DNA from: Candidatus Harrisonbacteria bacterium RIFCSPLOWO2_01_FULL_44_18
Lineage (GTDB): Bacteria; Patescibacteriota; Minisyncoccia; UBA6257; WO2-44-18
Direction of reading: 5' to 3'
NCBI GenBank assembly: GCA_001817915.1
Contig: MHJJ01000014.1
Span: 3,695-67,694 of the forward strand
DNA: 64,000 nt
This document shows positions 4,122-59,303 of this stretch, in pieces; within the stretch, counting starts at the first letter, position 1; each line of letters opens with the position of its first letter. The notes under the pieces were generated by a model that had not been told where the DNA came from, searched no databases, and worked only from the letters and a program-made list of their open reading frames with translations. The position numbers and the translations under genes are program-made.

Positions 4122-5840
4122 ATGCTAACGAAACTTTATTGGATTTTAGCAATTGTTTTAATTTTGCTTATCGGTTTAGCCGGATTTTTTTGGTTTCAAT
4201 CCCGTTCAAATCAAGGCTTGGATTTGCAAATTAACGCTCCCGACGAAGTTTTAATTGGAGTGCCTTTTGATTTGGAAATCAACGTAACCAACGATTCCGG
4301 CGGCATTTTAAAAGACAGCAAACTTTCATTGGCCATTCCCGAAGATGTCGTGTTTGTGGGAAGCGCCGTCGGTAAAACCGTGGAATATAAAACATTGGGC
4401 AATTTGGGCGTCGGCAATTTGACCAAAGAAAGTTTTAAACTGATGGCGTTGGGCGAGGAGAATAGCTTGAGGCAAATCGAAGCCACCCTTAGTTATTTGC
4501 CGACTTCTTTGGGATCGCGATTTGAAATCGTAAAAAAAATTGATTTGGAAGCGGGCCAATTCGGCTTAGTTGTTGATTTAACGGCGCCGGAAAAAGTTTT
4601 CAGCGGCGAAGATTTTGAGATCGCCGCTTCTTATAAAAATGTTTCCGGCATTGATCTTTCGGGCCTTATCCTTAAAATGGAATATCCGCCGACGTTTAAT
4701 TTTATAGAATCTTCCTTGGAGCCGGACGCCGGGAACAATGTTTGGAATTTGGGAGATTTGCGGCGAGGTTCGGAAATGGAATTTAAAATAAAAGGAAACC
4801 TTATCGGCCCGGACGATTCATTTTTTGATTTAAGAGCCAGCCTAGAGGCCAATTTTTTGGGTAAAACCTATGTCATCAGCGGTAAATCGGCCAACGTCTC
4901 TATTTCGCCGTCGCCGCTCTCTTTGCGAATTTTCCTAAACGAGGATCCTGATTATGTTGCCGGGCCGGGCGATGTTTTAAATTATTCTCTGGCCTACGCC
5001 AACAACACCGACGTCGCGCTGCGGGACGTTGTTATTGAAGCGAAATTAATCGGTGAAATGTTTGACCTAAAAACTTTAAATACTAACGGAATTACCCGTT
5101 CCGGTGAAAACGCGCTGGTTTGGAACGCGTCAAATTTGCCCGAGCTGGCAGTTTTACCGGTCGGCGCTTCCGGGACAGTGAATTTTCAGACAAAAGTCGC
5201 GAACAGCTACCCCATAAAAAGATTGAGCGATAAAAATTTTGTTCTAAAAGCGGAAGCTCAAATTGAGTCGCCGACTGTGCCGTATTTTGTGGGAGCGCGG
5301 AAAACAGTCGGTCTGGCAAAGCTGGAAACTAAAGTTGCCGGGCAAATAAAAGTTGATACCAAAGTGTATTTTCGAGACGCGGCTTCAGGAATTTTGAATA
5401 AAGGGCCGATGCCTCTTAAAGCGGGGCAACCGACTCAATTTACCGCGCATTGGTTTATTACTAATTTTGGAACAGACGTCAGCGGCGTGGAAGTCAGAGC
5501 ATTTTTGGAAGGAAATGTTAGAATGATAGCAGATAAAACAAAGAGCAATAGCGGCGCTCTTCCGGTTTATAACGAAAGAACGCAGGAAGTGGTTTGGCTG
5601 ATAGATCGGATTCCGGCTACTAAAGGAGTAATCGGCGACCCCCTTGAGGCGATTTTTCAAATTGAGGCAATGCCTTCCGCTAATTTGGCCGGGACTTATA
5701 TGCCGCTTATAAAAAATAGCTCAATAACCGCCACGGACGATTTTACCGGATTAAAATTAAGCGGTTCGGATTTAGCCGCGACCACCGCGCTGCCGGACGA
5801 TCCGACAGTCGGTCCGCAAGGCGGCATCGTTAAGAATTAG
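4122..5840 (+). CDS. hypothetical membrane-anchored surface protein with repeated beta-rich segments
   Basis: 572 aa with an N-terminal TM segment (LYWILAIVLILLIGLAGFFWF). Long ORF, no domain I can name confidently. Confidence 0.6.
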   Translation: MLTKLYWILAIVLILLIGLAGFFWFQSRSNQGLDLQINAPDEVLIGVPFDLEINVTNDSGGILKDSKLSLAIPEDVVFVGSAVGKTVEYKTLGNLGVGNLTKESFKLMALGEENSLRQIEATLSYLPTSLGSRFEIVKKIDLEAGQFGLVVDLTAPEKVFSGEDFEIAASYKNVSGIDLSGLILKMEYPPTFNFIESSLEPDAGNNVWNLGDLRRGSEMEFKIKGNLIGPDDSFFDLRASLEANFLGKTYVISGKSANVSISPSPLSLRIFLNEDPDYVAGPGDVLNYSLAYANNTDVALRDVVIEAKLIGEMFDLKTLNTNGITRSGENALVWNASNLPELAVLPVGASGTVNFQTKVANSYPIKRLSDKNFVLKAEAQIESPTVPYFVGARKTVGLAKLETKVAGQIKVDTKVYFRDAASGILNKGPMPLKAGQPTQFTAHWFITNFGTDVSGVEVRAFLEGNVRMIADKTKSNSGALPVYNERTQEVVWLIDRIPATKGVIGDPLEAIFQIEAMPSANLAGTYMPLIKNSSITATDDFTGLKLSGSDLAATTALPDDPTVGPQGGIVKN

Positions 5841-13619: not shown

Positions 13620-13646
13620 GGCCGATAAAAATCGGCCTTTTGTTTT
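13620..13646 (+). terminator. intrinsic terminator
   Basis: Stem ggccgat / atcggcc with an aaaa loop, then ttttgtttt. A second palindrome (tacctttcaataat/attattgaaaggta) follows. Confidence 0.7.
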
Positions 13647-13798
13647 ACCTTTCAATAATGTAAATTATTGAAAGGTAAAACATTTTTAAAAGATCGTTGA
13701 AAAAAAGCTTGAGATTAATTACTGCGCAACAAATAACACAACAAACAACATCCTTACAAACTTGAGAATGTAAGGATGTTGTGTGGTAAGTGCGGTAA

Positions 13799-14703: not shown

Positions 14704-14745
14704 GATTTCGGGAATCGATAGATACTTCTATCGATTCCCGAAATC
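14704..14745. repeat. palindrome of the gatttcgggaatc family
   Basis: Sequence gatttcgggaatcgatagatacttctatcgattcccgaaatc. More arms lie at 14773-14811 and 37541-37598. Confidence 0.85.
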
Positions 14746-49196: not shown

Positions 49197-50672
49197 ATGC
49201 ACTTACACGATTTAACAATCAAAAAGTTCCACGAAGGTTTACTAAAAAAAGATTTTTCCGCGCTGGAAATAACGAAGGAATTTTTTGATTACATTGAAGT
49301 TAAGGATAAAGAAATTGGGGCTTATCTTTCCTTGGCCAAAGACGAAGCATTTTTGCGGGCCGAAAAAGCAGATTTAAAAATTGCCAAAGACGAACCGATG
49401 GACGCGCTGAGCGGGGTGCCGCTCGCGATCAAAGACAATATTTTGATTGATGGCCAGCCGGCTACTGCCGCATCTAAAATTTTGGAAAATTATAAGGCGG
49501 TTTATGACGCAACGGTAATTAAGAAATTAAAAGCCGTTGGAGCGGTTTTCCTTGGCAAAACTAATATGGACGAGTTTGCCATGGGTTCTTCGACAGAAAA
49601 TTCCGGATTTAAATTAACTAAGAATCCTTATGATTTGGAACGAGTTCCGGGAGGGTCTTCCGGCGGTTCGGCAGCCGCGGTTGCCGCCCATATGGCAGTG
49701 GCCGCCTTTGGTTCTGATACCGGCGGTTCAATTCGACAGCCAGCCAGTTTCTGCGGTGTTGTCGGATTAAAGCCGACTTATGGAGCGGTTTCTCGACATG
49801 GATTGATCGCGATGGCTTCAAGCTTGGATCAGATCGGCCCTTTTACGAAAACCGTTGAAGACGCGGCGATTTTATTTAAAACTATTGCCGGAAAAGATCA
49901 GTTTGATTCTACCAGCGTTGAAACAAATTATAATGATGAATTATTAAATCCAAAGCTTGAAGATGTTAAAAAACTGACCGTCGGTCTGCCGGAAGAATAT
50001 TTTATAAGCGGCGTTGAGCCAGGCGTCATTAAAGCAGTTGAATCGGCAATCAATCAATTCAAAAGTTTGGGGATTAATTTTAAAAAAATCAGTTTGCCGC
50101 ACACCAAATACGCCTTATCTTGCTACTATATCATTATGCCCGCGGAAGTTAGCGCCAATTTAGCTCGTTTTGATGGTATAAGATATTCCAAAATCCAAAA
50201 TCCAAAATCCAAAATCCAAAACTTGCTGGAATTGTATAAAAGACAGCGCAGCGAAGGATTCGGGCCGGAAGTGAAGCGAAGAATTATTCTGGGAACTTTT
50301 GTTTTATCATCCGGATATTACGATGCTTACTATGCCAAAGCGCAGAAGGCGCGCGCGCTGATCAAAAAAGATTTTGATGAAGCATTCAAAGAAGTAGATG
50401 TTATTCTTACTCCGGTCGCGCCAACGCCGGCATTCAAATTCGGAGAAAAAACCAGCGACCCATTGGCGATGTACCTTTCTGACATATTTACCATTCCAGT
50501 CAATCTTGCTGGCTTACCCGCTATTTCGATACCAGTGAAACAAGCGACAAGCGACATGTCGCGCGTCACAAGTCATAAGCCACTGCCTATCGGTTTTCAA
50601 TTGATTGGCAAACATTGGCGAGAGGCCGATATTTTGGGGATGGGGATGTTTTATGAAAGATTACAAATTTAA
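49197..50672 (+). CDS. gatA: Asp/Glu-tRNA(Asn/Gln) amidotransferase subunit A
   Basis: 491 aa with the amidase signature GGSSGGSAAAVAA..GSDTGGSIRQPA. Inserts at 50187-50221 and 50544-50570. Confidence 0.93.
   Translation: MHLHDLTIKKFHEGLLKKDFSALEITKEFFDYIEVKDKEIGAYLSLAKDEAFLRAEKADLKIAKDEPMDALSGVPLAIKDNILIDGQPATAASKILENYKAVYDATVIKKLKAVGAVFLGKTNMDEFAMGSSTENSGFKLTKNPYDLERVPGGSSGGSAAAVAAHMAVAAFGSDTGGSIRQPASFCGVVGLKPTYGAVSRHGLIAMASSLDQIGPFTKTVEDAAILFKTIAGKDQFDSTSVETNYNDELLNPKLEDVKKLTVGLPEEYFISGVEPGVIKAVESAINQFKSLGINFKKISLPHTKYALSCYYIIMPAEVSANLARFDGIRYSKIQNPKSKIQNLLELYKRQRSEGFGPEVKRRIILGTFVLSSGYYDAYYAKAQKARALIKKDFDEAFKEVDVILTPVAPTPAFKFGEKTSDPLAMYLSDIFTIPVNLAGLPAISIPVKQATSDMSRVTSHKPLPIGFQLIGKHWREADILGMGMFYERLQI
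50187..50221. repeat. heptanucleotide tandem repeat TCCAAAA x5 inside gatA
   Basis: Read directly; encodes SKIQNPKSKIQN. The same heptamer occurs x4 in pheT. Confidence 0.95.
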
Positions 50673-51623: not shown

Positions 51624-51698
51624 CGCGGGCGGCCGGATTTGAACCGGTGACCTTCCGCGTGACAGGCGGACGCTCTAACCAGACTGAGCTACGCCCGC
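51624..51698 (-). tRNA. tRNA-Asp(GUC)
   Basis: GCGGGCG-TA-GCTC-AGTCTGGTTA-GAGC-G-TCCGC-CTGTCAC-GCGGA-AGGTC-ACCGG-TTCAAAT-CCGGC-CGCCCGC-G. Flanked by an 11-bp inverted repeat. Confidence 0.88.
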
Positions 51699-51728: not shown

Positions 51729-53078
51729 CTATTTTTTAATTTGTTTTACAATTTTTTTGAATTTTCTTCCGCGATCTTTATAATCTTTGAACATGTCAAA
51801 ACTGGCGGCGCCGGGAGAAAAGACGATAGTAACTGGCAATCGGTAATCGGCAATTAGAGACTTCGCAGTTTTATATGCAATTTTAATAGCAGATTCTAAA
51901 TTGCCGCCTTTTCTAATTACTATTTTCTGGTTACTAATTACTGAGGCTATTTTATTTTTATTTTCGCCAAAAAGCATAACAGCTTTGACATTGCAGGCTT
52001 TTTTAATGGCATCGGCAAGAGGTTTATAATTGAGATTTTTATCTTTTCCGCCGGCAATCAAAATGGTTAATTGGTTTGTTGATTGGCTGGTTATTTGGTT
52101 ATTAGAAAAGGAAAGAACGGCGGCGGCGGAAGTTTGCGGATTGGTGCTCGCGGAATCATTGTAAAAATCTATTCTAGAATTCATTCCAACGTTCTTAAGA
52201 ACGTTGGAATGAATTTTTATACCGCGGACGAATTCCAGCCGATGCTCTATTCCTTTAAATTCCGCGATTGTTTTATCAATGATATGGTCGGGACAGTCCA
52301 GATTTTGGGCGATTGCTTTTGCCATCGCGGCGTTTTTTTGATTATGATCGCCCGGGATTTGCAGACCGGGTAGGCCAATGTTTTCCGGAGAAACGGGGAT
52401 TTTTCGAGCAGGCGATTGATCGGCAATCCATTTTGAAAACTTGTTATCAGAGGAATAAAATATCTTATCTTGTTTTGAATTCTGAAAACGGCCGATGTTA
52501 GCTTTGGCATTAATATATTCTTTGAAATTTTTGTGACTATCTAGGTGATCGGGGAAAATATCTAAAATCGCCGCCAATCGCGGAGATTTCGCGAGGTCTT
52601 GGAGTTGAAAACTAGAGAGTTCCAGAATAACCATTGTTCGAGAATCAATTTTTGGCAATATTTCCAGCGCCGACTTGCCGATATTTCCAGCCAAGGCCGC
52701 CTTAAATCCGGAGTTTTTGAGAATTTGATAAAGCAATGTGGCAGTTGTGCCCTTCCCCTTGGTGCCCGTTATTCCGATGACGATTTGTCCGTGATGTCCG
52801 TGTTCAGTCCGCGTGGTTCCGTGAAGTTGTTCAAAGAACAACTTAGTGGCGCTGGAGAAACGAATCCCTTTTTTGATGGCGCGCTGAATCTGCGGTAAAT
52901 TGTACGGCACTCCCGGCGAGCGAAAAACAACATCAAACTTGTCGAGATTTTTTAAATAATTTTTGTCCCGTTTTTGATCCAGAATTTCAATTTTTGCTCC
53001 GCCATAAATCGGCGAGCGTTTCAAGAATTTGAGCGTTGATTTTCCTTCTATTCCAAAGCCCAGAATCGCGATCTTCAT
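51729..53078 (-). CDS. murD: UDP-N-acetylmuramoylalanine--D-glutamate ligase
   Basis: 449 aa with the Mur ligase P-loop GITGTKGKGTTATLL. Contains a 36-bp perfect palindrome in frame. Confidence 0.88.
   Translation of the reverse strand: MKIAILGFGIEGKSTLKFLKRSPIYGGAKIEILDQKRDKNYLKNLDKFDVVFRSPGVPYNLPQIQRAIKKGIRFSSATKLFFEQLHGTTRTEHGHHGQIVIGITGTKGKGTTATLLYQILKNSGFKAALAGNIGKSALEILPKIDSRTMVILELSSFQLQDLAKSPRLAAILDIFPDHLDSHKNFKEYINAKANIGRFQNSKQDKIFYSSDNKFSKWIADQSPARKIPVSPENIGLPGLQIPGDHNQKNAAMAKAIAQNLDCPDHIIDKTIAEFKGIEHRLEFVRGIKIHSNVLKNVGMNSRIDFYNDSASTNPQTSAAAVLSFSNNQITSQSTNQLTILIAGGKDKNLNYKPLADAIKKACNVKAVMLFGENKNKIASVISNQKIVIRKGGNLESAIKIAYKTAKSLIADYRLPVTIVFSPGAASFDMFKDYKDRGRKFKKIVKQIKK
52179..52214. 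repeat. 36-bp perfect palindrome inside murD
   Basis: attcattccaacgttctt|aagaacgttggaatgaat is 12 codons and encodes IHSNVLKNVGMN. A diverged copy lies at about 54665-54700. Confidence 0.95.
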
Positions 53079-53651: not shown

Positions 53652-53723
53652 CGCGGGGTAGAGAAGTAGTATCTCGCAAGGCCCATAACCTTGAGATCGT
53701 TGGTGCAATTCCAACCCCCGCAA
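53652..53723 (+). tRNA. initiator tRNA-fMet(CAU)
   Basis: CGCGGGG...CCCCGCA-A with the C1:A72 mismatch and loop CCCATAA. The D-loop (AGTAGTA) and T-loop (TGCAATT) are atypical. Confidence 0.8.
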
Positions 53724-53809: not shown

Positions 53810-53884
53810 GGCTGGGTAGCTCAGTGGTAGAGCAGGCGTTTCATAAGCGCCAGGTCGCGAGTTCGATCCTCGCCCCAGCCACCA
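53810..53884 (+). tRNA. tRNA-Met(CAU) elongator type (or Ile2, if the anticodon is modified), CCA encoded
   Basis: GGCTGGG-TA-GCTC-AGTGGTA-GAGC-A-GGCGT-TTCATAA-GCGCC-AGGTC-GCGAG-TTCGATC-CTCGC-CCCAGCC-ACCA. Confidence 0.88.
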
Positions 53885-54625: not shown

Positions 54626-54649
54626 AATCCCCCTAATTAGGGGGATTTT
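54626..54649 (+). terminator. intrinsic terminator
   Basis: Perfect palindrome aatccccctaattagggggatt followed by a T-run. Confidence 0.75.
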
Positions 54650-54831
54650 ATAATTTTGGAAAATGACTTCGGTGTTTATTCCAATGTTCTTAAGAACTTG
54701 AGAATAACCTTTAATTTCTATATACTTCTATTTCACAATCGAGACATAGAAGTACAGCTTATAATATAAAGAAAAATAATTTATCATCAGAAGAATTCGT
54801 ATTTTCCTCCAAAAATGTTAAAATAATAAGC

Positions 54832-55977
54832 ATGGATATTCAAGATTTACGACATTCTTTTCATCACGAGATCAAAGGCGTTAAAGACGCAAAAACCCTT
54901 GAGGGGTTTAGAATAAAGTATTTAGGGCGCAAAGACGGCGAGCTTACTAAAATTTTGCGTTCACTGAAAGATTTGCCGTTGGCAAAAAAGAGAAAAATTG
55001 GTCCTGCCGCCAATAATTTGCGAAAGGAAATCGAAGTCGCTTTAGAAGCAAAACTTAAGGAGCTACAAACTACAAACTACAAACTACAAACTAGAATTGA
55101 TGTTACTATGCCCGGCAAAAAGATTCCGGTCGGGCATCTTCACCCGCTGACTTTGATGGAAAATAGAATTCGGGAAATTTTCCGCGGTTTGAATTTTTCC
55201 GTTGTTGAAGGCCCGGAGATAGAAACCGAACATTATAATTTTGACGCTTTAAATATTCCGGCTAATCATCCAGCTAGGGATATGTGGGACACCTTTTGGT
55301 TAAAACTTTCTGCCAACGGCGGAAAGTTCGCCCAACCAGATTTGCGAAGCAAATCTGGTTTAGGGCTAAAAACGCAGACTAACGCAGAAAAAATTCCGCG
55401 TGAGTCCGCGTCAAGTCCGCGTGTGTCTGCGCTGTTAAGAACTCACACCAGTCCGATGCAGATTCGTTATATGGAAACGCATCGGCCGCCGTTTCAGATA
55501 ATTGTGCCCGGACGAGTATTTCGTTATGAGGCTACTGACGCTTCCCACGAAATCAATTTTCATCAAGTTGAGGGTTTGATGGTCGGAGAAAATATCAATC
55601 TGGCTAATTTTAAATATATTATTGAGGAATTTTTCCGCCAGCTTTTCGGCGCCGGCACGCATATCCGTTTTCGCCCAAGTTATTTTCCGTTTGTCGAACC
55701 CGGTTTGGAAATAGACATTCTCCTTGACAGGAGCGCAGAAGAACGCGGACTATACGCAGACCAACGTGGAAAAAGTCTGCGTGAATCCGCGTGGTTGGAG
55801 GTGATGGGCGCGGGAATGGTGCATCCCAATGTTTTTCGAGCCGTTGGTTATGATTCCAGAAAGGTCCAGGGTTTTGCTTTCGGTTTGGGCATAGAAAGGC
55901 TGGCGATGATTAAATATAAGATCCCCGATATACGATTGTTCTACTCGGGAGACCTGCGTTTCATTAACCAGTTTTGA
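54832..55977 (+). CDS. pheS: phenylalanine--tRNA ligase alpha subunit
   Basis: 381 aa. Class II motifs include HPARDMWDTF, LLRTHTSPMQIR and FPFVEPGLEID..GAGMVHPNV. Three repeat-derived inserts. Confidence 0.93.
   Translation: MDIQDLRHSFHHEIKGVKDAKTLEGFRIKYLGRKDGELTKILRSLKDLPLAKKRKIGPAANNLRKEIEVALEAKLKELQTTNYKLQTRIDVTMPGKKIPVGHLHPLTLMENRIREIFRGLNFSVVEGPEIETEHYNFDALNIPANHPARDMWDTFWLKLSANGGKFAQPDLRSKSGLGLKTQTNAEKIPRESASSPRVSALLRTHTSPMQIRYMETHRPPFQIIVPGRVFRYEATDASHEINFHQVEGLMVGENINLANFKYIIEEFFRQLFGAGTHIRFRPSYFPFVEPGLEIDILLDRSAEERGLYADQRGKSLRESAWLEVMGAGMVHPNVFRAVGYDSRKVQGFAFGLGIERLAMIKYKIPDIRLFYSGDLRFINQF
55063..55090. repeat. heptanucleotide tandem repeat CTACAAA x4 inside pheS
   Basis: ctacaaactacaaactacaaactacaaa encodes LQTTNYKLQT. 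Confidence 0.9.
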
Positions 55978-56084: not shown

Positions 56085-58055
56085 ATGAAATTTTCCTACA
56101 CATTATTAAAAAAACTGGCGCCCGTTATAAAAAGCTCCGAGCAACTGATGGAAGCCTTAGCTTTTCATGCTTTTGAAGTTGAAAAAGTTGATGGCGATGT
56201 TATAGACATCGTCATTCCTGCTAATCGTTATTCTGATGCCGCCTCGCATTATGGGATGGCCGTGGTAGTGTCGGCAATTTTAGGCAAAAAAACGCCAGAA
56301 TTAAAACTGCCGGCGCTAAAGTCTAAAGCGCAAAGTTTAAACTTCAAAGTTGGCATTGATTCCAAAAAGCTTTGTCCGCGTTACAGCGGACTTTATGCCG
56401 AGATTAACAAGATTGGTAAATCTCCCGAGTGGATGCAAAAAATTTTAATTTCCTGCGGTTTGCGTCCAATTAACAACATCGTTGACGTGATGAATTATGT
56501 GATGCTGGAAATAGGACAACCATTACACGCTTTCGATTTTGACGAAATAGAAAGCGTGAAATCCAAAATCCAAAATCCAAAATCCAAAAATATTGTCGTT
56601 AGATTAGCAAAAGAAGGCGAAAAAATTGAAACAATTGATGGTGGCAAATATGACCTCGATGTAAATGATTTAGTAATAGCGGATGAAAAAGGGGCATTAG
56701 CGATTGCCGGGGTAAAAGGCGGAAAGCGCGCCGAGGTTTCTTTAAAAACTAAACGTATTATTGTTGAGGCGGCGAATTTCGATTCGGTTAGCGTTTACAA
56801 AACTTCTCGGCGGCTCAATTTATTCACTGATGCTTCGGCGCGCTTTTCTCATGGACTAGCACCCGTGTTAGTTGAAAAGGGGATTAAGAGAGCGGCTCAG
56901 CTTTTGAAAGAAGTTTGCGGCGCCAGATTGGGCGATTGGCTCGATGTGAACTATGTGAAGCCGAGTAAAACGATTATCAAGTTTGACGTGGAAAGATTTA
57001 ATAAGTTGACCGGACTTAGTTTAAGCGAAAAAGCGTGTTTGGAATATCTTAAAAAATTAGGATTTCAAGCAAGGGGCAAATTTATTGAGCCGCCGGCTGA
57101 ACGGACCGACATTTTGATTTTCGAGGATTTAGCCGAGGAAATTGTTAATCTTTATGGGTATGACCGGTTGCTTTCGGTTGTCCCGCGCGCGCTCTTGAGC
57201 CCTTCTGGAGCGGAAGATCAAATAGTTCTTAAAGATAAAATCAGAAGCATTCTAACCGGCTTTGGCTTGAGTGAAGTTTATAATTATTCTTTCATCGGAG
57301 AGCCTGATCCGAATCTACAAAATAAATTTTCATTGGTGGAGCTGGTAAATCCAATTGCCGATGATAAGAAATACCTGCGGCCCAGTTTATTTCCTCACTT
57401 GACTAGAAATATCGAAGAGAATTTTCGGTTTTACGATGAAGTAAGGATTTTTGAAATCGGTCGCGTTTTTGCGAAGGCAAGCGGCAAGAACGGTATAGCA
57501 AGCGGCATTAATGAGCAATTGAGTTTGGGGATCGCATTGGGGCTTAAAAAAGGCGCGCCATTTTTGGAGTTGAAAGGAATTGTTGAACAAATGCTCGGAC
57601 AAGCGGGCTTAGTTGATTATTTTACAAAAGAAGACGGCGAAGGTCGTTTACGGCTTGAATCCGATCATCGCACGCTCGGGTATTTAATTGCCAAAGACAA
57701 TAAAGCCCTTGCGGAAATTAATCTTGATGAATTGCTTCAATTGGTGGTCGGCGAAAAAGAATATAGGCCATTGCCGAAATATCCATCGGCGACGCGCGAT
57801 CTTTCATTTATGGTTGACGCTGAAGCGAGAGTAGCCGCGATTCAAAATATTATTGAAAATACCAGCCATTTACTCGATGACGCCGACTTATTGGATTGGT
57901 ACGAAGACCCGAAACTTGGCCCGAATAGAAAAAGTCTTACTTTTCGATTAGTTTTCCAAGCCGAAGATCGAACTTTAACCGATGAGGAAGTCGATCAAGA
58001 GTTAGGCAAAATTGTAGCCAGTTTGAAGGAGAAGTTTGATGTAGAATTAAGATAA
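56085..58055 (+). CDS. pheT: phenylalanine--tRNA ligase beta subunit (short form)
   Basis: 656 aa with B3/4, B5, core and C-terminal FDX-ACB-like regions. Directly follows pheS. Confidence 0.9.
   Translation: MKFSYTLLKKLAPVIKSSEQLMEALAFHAFEVEKVDGDVIDIVIPANRYSDAASHYGMAVVVSAILGKKTPELKLPALKSKAQSLNFKVGIDSKKLCPRYSGLYAEINKIGKSPEWMQKILISCGLRPINNIVDVMNYVMLEIGQPLHAFDFDEIESVKSKIQNPKSKNIVVRLAKEGEKIETIDGGKYDLDVNDLVIADEKGALAIAGVKGGKRAEVSLKTKRIIVEAANFDSVSVYKTSRRLNLFTDASARFSHGLAPVLVEKGIKRAAQLLKEVCGARLGDWLDVNYVKPSKTIIKFDVERFNKLTGLSLSEKACLEYLKKLGFQARGKFIEPPAERTDILIFEDLAEEIVNLYGYDRLLSVVPRALLSPSGAEDQIVLKDKIRSILTGFGLSEVYNYSFIGEPDPNLQNKFSLVELVNPIADDKKYLRPSLFPHLTRNIEENFRFYDEVRIFEIGRVFAKASGKNGIASGINEQLSLGIALGLKKGAPFLELKGIVEQMLGQAGLVDYFTKEDGEGRLRLESDHRTLGYLIAKDNKALAEINLDELLQLVVGEKEYRPLPKYPSATRDLSFMVDAEARVAAIQNIIENTSHLLDDADLLDWYEDPKLGPNRKSLTFRLVFQAEDRTLTDEEVDQELGKIVASLKEKFDVELR
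56562..56589. repeat. heptanucleotide tandem repeat TCCAAAA x4 inside pheT
   Basis: tccaaaatccaaaatccaaaatccaaaa encodes SKIQNPKSK. Confidence 0.95.
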
Positions 58056-59157: not shown

Positions 59158-59216
59158 TCCCAATATCCTTGAGTTGTCATCGAGTTGCCATCTCCCAATA
59201 TCCTTGAGTTGTCATC
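59158..59216. repeat. 24-bp direct repeat x2 (tcccaatatccttgagttgtcatc), 11-bp spacer
   Basis: Copies at 59158-59181 and 59193-59216. The spacer gagttgccatc resembles the end of the repeat. Confidence 0.9.
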
Positions 59217-59251
59217 TCCCGTTATGCGCGCTATAGCGCGCATAACGGGAG
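59214..59251 (+). terminator. 38-bp perfect palindrome plus T-run (terminator-like)
   Basis: tctcccgttatgcgcgcta|tagcgcgcataacgggaga followed by tttt. A second hairpin (gccgcca/tggcggc + tttt) lies at about 59271-59294. Confidence 0.65.
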
Positions 59252-59303
59252 ATTTTAAGTAAATTAATTTAGCCGCCAATTCTGGCGGCTTTTGCGTTAA
59301 TCA

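Follow-up and report, generated by a model that had tools for sequence, protein, structure and literature searches.

How does a perfect palindrome come to be translated within the gene for a cell-wall ligase? The question is raised by a 64,000-nucleotide stretch of DNA from Candidatus Harrisonbacteria bacterium RIFCSPLOWO2_01_FULL_44_18 (contig MHJJ01000014.1, positions 3,695 to 67,694), hereafter called the window. An initial annotation of this DNA, made from the letters alone, noted a perfect 36-bp palindrome inside murD and suggested the recent in-frame insertion of an element family. We find that the palindrome is an in-frame insert in a permissive hairpin turn of the MurD protein, and that it belongs to a dispersed, symmetric family of sites that crosses lineages. 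Members of this family bracket the gene for a small ArsR-type protein in a near-obligate manner, and the copies residing in murD are conserved at the DNA level.

A palindrome read in frame within murD

The sequence attcattccaacgttcttaagaacgttggaatgaat occupies positions 52179-52214 exactly as first noted, and an inverted-repeat scan lengthens its dyad by one base on each side, to 38 bp (52178-52215; 19-nt arms, spacer 0). It forms 12 codons, IHSNVLKNVGMN, corresponding to residues I289-N300 of the minus-strand open reading frame (ORF) at 51729-53078. The plus strand encodes the identical twelve residues (ORF 52083-52373), as follows from a perfect dyad that lies in phase with the codons. The minus-strand ORF finds its best matches among the UDP-N-acetylmuramoyl-L-alanine--D-glutamate ligases of Patescibacteria (55-63% identity), and its product aligns end to end with solved MurDs. 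Translation, database matches and alignment with PDB structures thus agree with the original placement of the 12 codons in MurD.

When the window was searched for the 26-nt core with up to three mismatches, one site was recovered, compared with none in 100 dinucleotide-preserving shuffles. Folded as single-stranded DNA, the palindrome reaches -17.7 kcal/mol, whereas shuffled sequences average -2.7 +/- 1.5 kcal/mol (z = -9.9). The palindrome is not an assembly artifact, because an independently assembled 9-kb ENA scaffold (L128) carries a gene segment with a palindrome identical to that in the window.

An insert in a permissive turn of MurD

Two MurD structures in the PDB (3lk7 and 7sir) have an 11-residue gap facing the window residues SNVLKNVGMNS, between the HR.E and NDS.(S/A)TN motifs. 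An AlphaFold2 model of the window protein (mean predicted local distance difference test score, pLDDT, of 83.9) places strands E281-288 and E302-308 in a hairpin with the insert at its tip. The mean pLDDT is 56 for residues 291-300, versus 78 and 82 in the adjoining ten-residue blocks. With the low confidence that these values permit, the model suggests that the copy lengthens the tip of a beta-hairpin, located at the start of the C-terminal domain, by about 12-13 residues.

The stretch from HR.E to NDS was then measured in the 119 closest MurD orthologs. A bare 11-residue loop (e.g., LVKKIKGISFY) is present in 30 of them, and in 14 others the palindrome peptide stands in place of the loop (LV-HSNILKNVGMN-FY). 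About 25 further orthologs have an HSNILKNVGM-like core with a variable left offset and a nearly fixed right junction (core-x-FY). Among the remainder are at least five other, unrelated inserts (RINQLNQHKSAS.., MVRQAHHKNKS.., RVNPCERSASNPCKS.., RIHSGHSDGFADSDR.. and KIANQSLIKFVNIRES..), and in two MurDs (P0044 and P0051) a second, unrelated insert is nested exactly at the palindrome center. Because bare loops, palindrome-filled loops and loops with at least five unrelated inserts all occur at this turn, it is a hot spot for short insertions. The best reading is that the insert is tolerated in the MurD loop and is not needed by the enzyme.

An equivalent conserved segment in MurDs from distant taxa would speak for an ordinary part of the protein, and alignment reveals no such segment in the solved MurDs. 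Related Patescibacteria MurDs do have an equivalent segment, but only through carrying the same element.

Two more lineage-specific in-frame inserts are located in murD, at 52785-52823 (HGTTRTEHGHHGQ, with CACGGA repeats) and at 52065-52103 (NNQITSQSTNQLT, CCAA/AACC-rich). Both face gaps in PDB MurDs and are modeled with low AlphaFold2 confidence, and orthologs carry other repeat-like inserts at these positions. The murD locus is also flanked by tRNA genes, one directly downstream on the minus strand (51624-51698) and two upstream on the plus strand (53652-53723 and 53810-53881).

A dispersed family of symmetric sites

A scan of one genome per species with the pattern TCYAABRTTCTYRAGAAYVTTRGA located at least 137 sites in at least 119 stretches of species-representative genomes. 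These are the matches listed, to which the family counts given here refer. About 2.5 chance matches are expected in such a scan by our estimate, and one match (L032) looks like an example. Most hosts are Patescibacteria from many classes, and others are Phycisphaerae, Verrucomicrobia, Omnitrophota and further groups. Three metagenome-assembled genomes (MAGs) of Phycisphaerae have at least 4-5 matching contigs each, and some of these contigs are 150-415 kb in length with 65-68% GC. Outside the search pattern, complementary ends are conserved, with CAT..ATG at no fewer than 62 sites and TAT..ATA at no fewer than 38. The family core is therefore 30 nt in length, YATTCYAAYRTTCTYRAGAAYRTTRGAATR, and the sole stop-free frame of the window core encodes HSNVLKNVGM.

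All three degenerate pairs are complementary at 108 of 134 sites, as against about 8% expected. In an ungapped alignment (A2), pairs 11:40, 16:35, 19:32 and 20:31 are C-G in some copies and U-A in others, or A-U in some and G-C in others, and the covariation of the arms exceeds that of all 500 shuffles and all slid controls. The perfect dyad reaches at least 3 nt beyond the core at 53 sites (about 6 expected) and typically totals 34-42 bp, which yields 10-13 residues when translated. Flanking pairs 10:41 and 9:42 are paired at 88% and 74% of sites, with all pair types seen, and the outer stems are specific to each copy. The central dinucleotide is TA at 48 of the 134 sites, TG at 43 and CA at 43. 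CG was never observed, even though the pattern allowed CTCGAG. One possibility is that methylated CTCGAG centers decay by C-to-T change.

The nhmmer profile of 136 members recovers the murD copy (E = 9e-11) and a diverged intergenic copy at 54676-54707 (E = 4e-5), and there is no further significant match in the 64-kb window. Elsewhere, the copies per genome amount to at least five matching contigs in the richest MAG. A metagenome scan for the ACGT subtype found in the window added 15 sites, including in-frame sites in TsaD- and QueA-like ORFs and one in a contig with 71% GC.

Searches in other directions returned little. Rfam models detected only tRNAs and noise in the whole window and in six family loci. 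The viral contig search gave one weak, non-palindromic, chance-like match, and collections of cultured plasmids and phages gave no meaningful match. In the full-text literature that we searched, we found no description of the palindrome element or of a site for the ArsR-type protein, which is not proof of novelty, and the element is apparently undescribed.

In one Phycisphaerae MAG (S014_18), the palindrome lies within a repeat of ~120-250 bp that is common to four short contigs (L039:4600-4830, L072:2100-2240, L098:2265-2511 and L107:2705-2943). The repeat holds a second copy split by an insert of ~20 nt, and hence is a composite, MITE-like element (MITE, miniature inverted-repeat transposable element).

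Genomic locations of the palindromes

The sites were classified with a crude gene caller. Of all 137, tandem spacers hold 63, at a median of 27 nt after the stop codon. A further 21 are in convergent spacers and only 7 in divergent spacers, while 28 are inside genes and 18 are unclassifiable. Intragenic copies are nearly all read in the single stop-free frame, as HSNILKNVGM or YSNVLKNIRI. Their hosts, which we named by eye from conserved motifs, include MnmA (at least four genomes), TsaD (at least three) and YchF (at least three), as well as TrmD, QueA, ArgS, PurL, a class II aldolase, an M24 peptidase, a glycosyltransferase and a reverse transcriptase. One MnmA (L049) accommodates two tandem copies in a single loop (HSNILKNVRM ... 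HANILQNVSM).

Association with a gene for an ArsR-type protein

Sites spaced about 290-350 bp apart bracket an ORF of ~90 amino acids. Three such ORFs match the Pfam family PF01022 (HTH_5, ArsR) with 31.2, 25.9 and 29.7 bits, where the cut-off is 22. The only families matched are of the winged-helix type (HTH_5, HTH_24 and MarR), and the database sources name these proteins ArsR family or winged helix-turn-helix. A hidden Markov model (HMM) built from eight of these ORFs identifies 33 strong members in the 119 stretches, each 8 kb or less. Nearly every ArsR-type gene lies between two palindromes, usually of similar subtype, the first shortly before the gene and the second at its 3' end. For nearly all of 35 genes examined, the upstream palindrome is at the start of the stop-to-stop frame or within about 60 nt of it. 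The 3' copy forms the stop codon or adjoins it, and in one subfamily the final nine residues (IL[KMT]FLRTLE*) are encoded by it as well.

A database search yielded 1,129 homologs, of which the top 120 have 67-96% identity and derive, by the names given in their sources, from several Patescibacteria classes, an Omnitrophica MAG and a Nanoarchaeota MAG. Reading the palindrome in frame +2 gives FLR[TIM]LE, the C-terminal sequence of 117 of these 120. The residue that follows the conserved His of the recognition helix also covaries with a base of the half-site. This base is G in 0 of 12 cases when the residue is Thr and in 10 of 21 cases when it is not (Fisher p = 0.005, uncorrected for phylogeny). 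Within the FLRTLE subfamily alone, variation is too low for covariation to be informative.

These observations suggest that the ArsR-type protein probably binds the 30-nt dyad, because the site fronts the protein's own gene, the geometry of the dyad fits ArsR/SmtB operators, and helix and half-site covary. Metal sensing seems unlikely, because the sequence ELCVCDL, which we take to be the ArsR/SmtB metal-binding motif, reads ELSVVDI in the protein from L112 when the two are compared by eye.

Other genes recur beside the ArsR-type gene or the sites in small numbers only, namely Mur ligases (3-4 loci) and Obg (3 loci). In several genomes, a Mur-ligase gene (MurD/MurC-like) adjoins the ArsR-type gene or directly follows a palindrome (L112:6666-7961, L110:578-1195, L042:5939-7327, L090:6418-7731 and L057), maybe by coincidence. 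Some stretches also carry paired ArsR-type paralogs, one from each subfamily (..FLRILE*/..FLRMLE* and ..FQHS*), located ~0.5-1.1 kb apart (L088:75-374 with 1447-1737, and L095:3708-3893 with 4416-4697). Three of these four genes have a palindrome, and none was detected at L095:3708-3893.

The diverged copy at 54676-54707 was also anticipated by the initial annotation. The relationship is real (85% self-complementarity in addition to the profile match), but the coordinates required correction from 54665-54700. This copy is an asymmetric gene-end variant like those in L007, L035, L040 and L111, here without an attached ArsR-type gene, and it may be the relic of a lost ArsR-type unit. Its minus-strand reading, VILKFLRTLE*, is the C-terminal tail that the palindrome encodes in the ArsR-type family. 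From the letters alone, the initial annotation could see neither this gene-end character nor the link to the ArsR-type gene and the spread across phyla. By consensus match only, a promoter-like -35 sequence (TTGAGA, 54698) falls in its right arm, ~105 nt upstream of pheS. About 30 nt before this copy is a terminator-like hairpin (AATCCCCCTAATTAGGGGGATT, 54626-54647) followed by a T-run.

Age and possible renewal of the copies in MurD

We obtained DNA for nine further MurD orthologs. The condition of the site varies widely among them. One has a 42-bp perfect dyad (AAAAGTCATTCTCACGTTCTTAAGAACGTGAGAATGACTTTT, P0006), another has perfect 20-nt arms around a 2-nt center (P0015), and a third has a single mismatch in the dyad (P0009). 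Two copies are decayed (P0002 and P0004), one has a second insert nested in the palindrome center (P0044), two sites are empty (P0007 and P0113), and one holds a different repeat (P0010). Across the MurD copies, paired changes preserve the symmetry, as when TCC AAC..GTT GGA is replaced by TCT CAC..GTG AGA.

Eight independent MurD copies, from orthologs chosen by protein similarity, were compared for codon choice. Ser is encoded by TCY in all eight (37% usage window-wide), Leu by CTN in all eight (42%), Gly or Arg by GGA or AGA in all eight (24%), and Lys by AAG in five of five (23%). Because these codons are those of the element and not those preferred by the genome, conservation operates at the nucleic-acid level and is not explained by the peptide alone.

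A filled site (P0066) and an empty one (P0113), which are neighbors in a rough neighbor-joining (NJ) tree, differ by 24 nt inserted before the host sequence GGA ATA, and this pair has no target-site duplication. The host GGA ATA equals the hexamer at the element's right end, pointing to microhomology where the two join.

The nearest full-length ortholog of the window MurD (P0002, 63% identity) carries a decayed copy in which 10 of 15 pairs are Watson-Crick and whose left junction is as in the window. The site was therefore filled before the two lineages split. Related copies in ~40 other orthologs agree with this view. Of the original suggestion of a recent in-frame insertion of an element family, the in-frame insertion and the family both stand, but the word recent needs revision. 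Occupancy of the MurD site is old or recurrent, and it is the perfection of the window copy that looks recent.

The comparison with P0002 also hints at how that perfection might have been reached. The window reads ...GTT GGA ATG AAT TCT AGA ATA GAT TTT where P0002 reads ...GTG AGA ATA AAC TTT. With the 12 extra bases of the window (GGAATGAATTCT), the left arm gains its full and exact complement, and AGAATA follows. Codons S301-D304 probably preserve the right end (AGAATA) that once belonged to an older copy and was pushed aside when the palindrome was renewed 12 nt out of register. The window copy would then be a recent renewal of an old one, either by out-of-register, hairpin-templated template switching or by re-insertion.

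A proposed origin and its alternatives

Taken together, we consider it fairly probable that the palindrome belongs to a family of elements similar to repetitive extragenic palindromic (REP) sequences or Rickettsia palindromic elements (RPEs), which is the putative site of the ArsR-type protein, has spread to gene ends and loops, and is tolerated in MurD, where the window copy has been renewed. In this scheme, a ~90-residue winged-helix protein of the ArsR/SmtB type would recognize the palindrome, and its own gene would be bracketed by a promoter-region copy and a stop-codon copy. Further copies would spread to gene ends and intergenic spacers, and those landing in the lone stop-free frame would persist in surface loops of housekeeping proteins. 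The MurD loop was already filled in the ancestor shared with the nearest full-length ortholog, and the 38-bp perfection would derive from recent hairpin-templated (template-switch) renewal or from re-insertion. Hairpin-templated renewal would also explain why dyads extend into unrelated flanking sequence. Spread is suggested by the 3:1 excess of convergent over divergent spacers, by tandem and nested copies, by interleaved filled and empty alleles, by AT-rich copies in GC-rich genomes, and by small proteins that stay highly identical from one phylum to another.

Several considerations weigh against this proposal. The ArsR-type gene is absent from the 64-kb window, as judged by a relaxed HMM applied to all six frames, and no transposase, recombinase, toxin or transporter is conserved beside the ArsR-type gene or the listed sites. 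The site set was selected by DNA pattern, the taxonomic labels of MAGs are unreliable, and the MurD tree is a crude NJ tree. The template-switch scenario draws on a single pairwise comparison. Moreover, a low apparent copy number (2 in 64 kb) together with DNA-level conservation at the same loops in several lineages would equally suit a conserved set of functional binding sites, as opposed to selfish spread.

A bolder version of our proposal holds that the arrangement palindrome, ArsR-type gene, palindrome is itself a minimal selfish element of a novel type, composed of a binder and its own site with no nuclease or transposase. Such a unit would move horizontally among Patescibacteria classes, Omnitrophota, Phycisphaerae and a Nanoarchaeota MAG, would seed new copies of its 30-bp site at gene ends and, in frame, within loops of essential proteins by microhomology or template switching, and would be maintained by hairpin-templated upkeep. 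We regard this version as possible but doubtful.

The main rival is that the intragenic copies, in murD, mnmA, tsaD and ychF, are operators, selected sites in a conserved regulon of the ArsR-type (or another dimeric) binder, with a roadblock or chromosome-organizing role and vertical inheritance. This view gains from the conservation of synonymous sites in MurDs with just 55-63% protein identity, from the recurrence of the same genes and loops across genomes, and from the scarcity of copies, which within one genome share one subtype. AT-rich copies are also kept in Phycisphaeraceae contigs with 65-68% GC, and the intergenic copy in the window overlaps the promoter-like -35 sequence upstream of pheS. 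Yet except for the ArsR-type gene itself, no gene family is consistently found beside the sites. The 21-to-7 ratio of convergent to divergent spacers among the sites listed is the opposite of what operators would produce. Among close MurD relatives, alleles that are filled, empty or filled differently are intermixed, two copies sit in tandem in a single MnmA loop, and inserts are nested in palindrome centers. Finally, the five or more unrelated insert families in the same MurD loop suggest that the loop is permissive, and not that regulation requires a site there. For these reasons we judge an operator unlikely, and we continue to favor a spreading element that MurD tolerates.

Perhaps the palindrome acts instead as RNA, in the form of a 19-bp hairpin in the murD mRNA that directs RNase III or other processing, stabilizes the transcript, or pauses ribosomes at the edge of the C-terminal domain. 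A strong fold is predicted, the covariation of the arms is as compatible with base pairing as with a protein-bound dyad, and many intergenic copies lie just past stop codons, with a T-run after 34 of 134 sites. But these are true DNA palindromes that read alike on both strands, and the equal numbers of TG and CA centers indicate no strand preference relative to transcription. In addition, Rfam offers no match, the murD copy was not flagged by a terminator scan, and a copy upstream of nearly every ArsR-type gene start would be odd for an RNA 3' element. A function of this kind is improbable.

An SOS (LexA) box or the site of another general repressor is less probable still. Type-B cores such as ATGTTCTTAAGAACAT contain TGTTC-N4-GAACA, which is the experimentally defined LexA motif of Verrucomicrobia, present in the promoters of lexA, recA and imuA (PMC4951493), and some matches come from MAGs of the Planctomycetes-Verrucomicrobia-Chlamydiae (PVC) group. 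LexA no longer binds once a single change is made in the TGTTC/GAACA repeats (PMC4951493), however, and the window copy has CGTTC-N4-GAACG whereas type A has CATTC-N4-GAATG. Conservation spans 30 nt, far past the 14-bp LexA box, and the consistent associate is the ArsR-type gene and not lexA or recA, neither of which is among the recurrent neighbor families. Another article cites work on Patescibacteria LexA jointly with two other studies for direct-repeat LexA motifs (PMC7739468), which also counts against a LexA box.

That the palindrome is an ordinary lineage-specific MurD segment, a chance symmetry or an artifact is already refuted: although its peptide is common to many related MurDs, which is all that recommends this idea, the shuffles gave no match, an independent assembly is identical, more than 100 genomes have this 30-nt core in spacers and in genes unrelated to one another, and the segment is missing from PDB MurDs and from 30 of 119 close orthologs.

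Certain familiar identities were also considered and rejected. The target-site-duplication (MITE) model fails because the flanks are inverted and not direct repeats; the whole element is one dyad, and the filled and empty pair has no duplication. An intrinsic terminator, with a G+C-rich stem leading straight into a T-run, does not fit, since the murD copy is unflagged on either strand and TTTT occurs within 10 nt at only 34 of 134 sites. DNA uptake sequences are over-represented genome-wide at about one copy per kb, as opposed to two in 64 kb here. A dif/Xer site, a CRISPR repeat and an integron attC site do not agree with the conserved length, the copy number, the absence of arrays and the lack of the expected neighbors; explicit feature tests were confined to LexA and uptake sequences.

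Comparison with known systems

Several established systems share some features with the family. RPEs were reportedly described by Ogata et al. in Science in 2000. They are counted within the literature on prokaryotic MITEs (PMC10969869). As with RPEs, the palindromic repeat is read in frame in conserved genes, at a permissive surface place and with function kept, and it also exists in intergenic regions. RPEs are larger (about 100-150 bp and 30-50 residues, versus a 30-nt core, a dyad of 34-42 bp and 10-13 residues) and are confined to Rickettsia, whereas the present family spans Patescibacteria classes and other phyla and, unlike RPEs, is tied to a specific small winged-helix gene. We set the family apart from RPEs on the basis of their descriptions.

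REP and REPIN elements and the RAYT gene are said to have been characterized by Nunvar (2010) and by Bertels and Rainey (2011). Like these, the family consists of 20-40 bp palindromes, most of which lie shortly after genes or in convergent spacers, and a dedicated single-copy gene is located between two copies of the repeat. RAYT is a Y1 HUH transposase, whereas the gene flanked here encodes an ArsR-type DNA binder of ~90 residues. At one end, REP repeats carry a conserved tetranucleotide, GTAG or CGTC (PMC3733652), whereas the present copies have no such head and end in CAT..ATG or TAT..ATA. REP sequences are extragenic and number tens to hundreds per genome, but the intragenic fraction reported above, which includes the window copy, is in frame, and the copy number appears low in the sequence covered here.

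The ArsR/SmtB autorepressors SmtB, CzrA and CadC act on dyad operators of the 12-2-12 type. The protein described here is likewise a small, dimer-type winged-helix protein (HTH_5) with a dyad before its own gene and half-sites of about 12-14 bp. It differs from these autorepressors in that the stop codon of the gene is merged with a second site and that further sites are scattered, in-frame insertions in housekeeping genes among them.

Quasi-palindrome correction by intramolecular template switching, reportedly studied by Ripley (1982) and by the Lovett laboratory, is a mutational mechanism observed in E. coli and phage T4 reporters. It converts decayed dyads to perfect ones and lets them grow into their flanks, which is comparable to the perfect 38-42-bp copies at old sites and to outer stems that are complementary yet differ from copy to copy. 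Unlike the process proposed here, it is not known as a means of maintaining a repeat family, a role that we infer.

Finally, parS inside spo0J/parB of Bacillus subtilis is a 16-bp site that arises by point substitution in existing codons. By analogy, it is a palindromic site inside the gene of its binder with more sites inside other genes, but the family copies are 30-nt insertions and the associated protein is unrelated to ParB.

Other features of the window

The features that bear on the palindrome are collected in Table 1.

Table 1. Coordinates of the murD palindrome, its host gene and related features in the window
Feature	Position	Strand	Remarks
murD, 449 aa, host gene	51729..53078	-	Insert between conserved H279-R280-x-E282 and N307-D308-S309
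Perfect 38-bp palindrome	52178..52215	none	Core of the family with a variable outer stem of 4 bp (AATT/AATT)
30-nt conserved family core CATTCCAACGTTCTTAAGAACGTTGGAATG	52182..52211	none	nhmmer profile of 136 copies, alignment, pair counts
Codons S301-D304 (TCT AGA ATA GAT)	52167..52178	-	Comparison with P0002
Diverged second copy, intergenic	54676..54707	none	About 125 nt upstream of pheS; minus-strand reading VILKFLRTLE*

Additional repeats are present in the window. A heptamer tandem, (AATCCAA)n, is in frame in gatA (50193-50222, IQNPKSKIQN) and in pheT (56553-56591, SVKSKIQNPKSKN), and constitutes another in-frame repeat family in unrelated essential genes. In pheS, in-frame segments at 55369-55431 and 55735-55791 are made from ACGCAGA/TCTGCG and GTCCGCGT repeats, and these segments (..TQTNAEKIPRESASSPRVSA.. 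and ..AEERGLYADQRGKSLRESA..) look like further repeat-derived inserts. Three intergenic perfect inverted repeats, each unique in sequence, are located at 59214-59253, 14704-14745 and 13641-13682. One is a 40-bp palindrome with no spacer, and in the other two a 4-nt loop separates arms of 19 nt. The genome thus seems generally given to long perfect dyads.

Implications

The inserts have practical consequences. Because the palindrome reads alike on both strands, it disturbs gene calling, as illustrated by ORF 52083-52373, and such inserts also disturb the alignment and phylogeny of marker proteins. At the same time, they could act as strain or lineage markers. If our proposal is correct, then ultra-small bacteria carry a counterpart of the selfish DNA that resides in the protein-coding genes of Rickettsia, but with an identifiable protein partner and a span across phyla that the Rickettsia case lacks. 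Part of the puzzling lineage-specific inserts in the housekeeping proteins of Patescibacteria would be explained. The 90-residue protein and its 30-bp site would offer a testable pair in organisms whose regulation is barely characterized, and the family would provide a natural system for exploring the upkeep of palindromes and the uptake of foreign DNA by coding loops.

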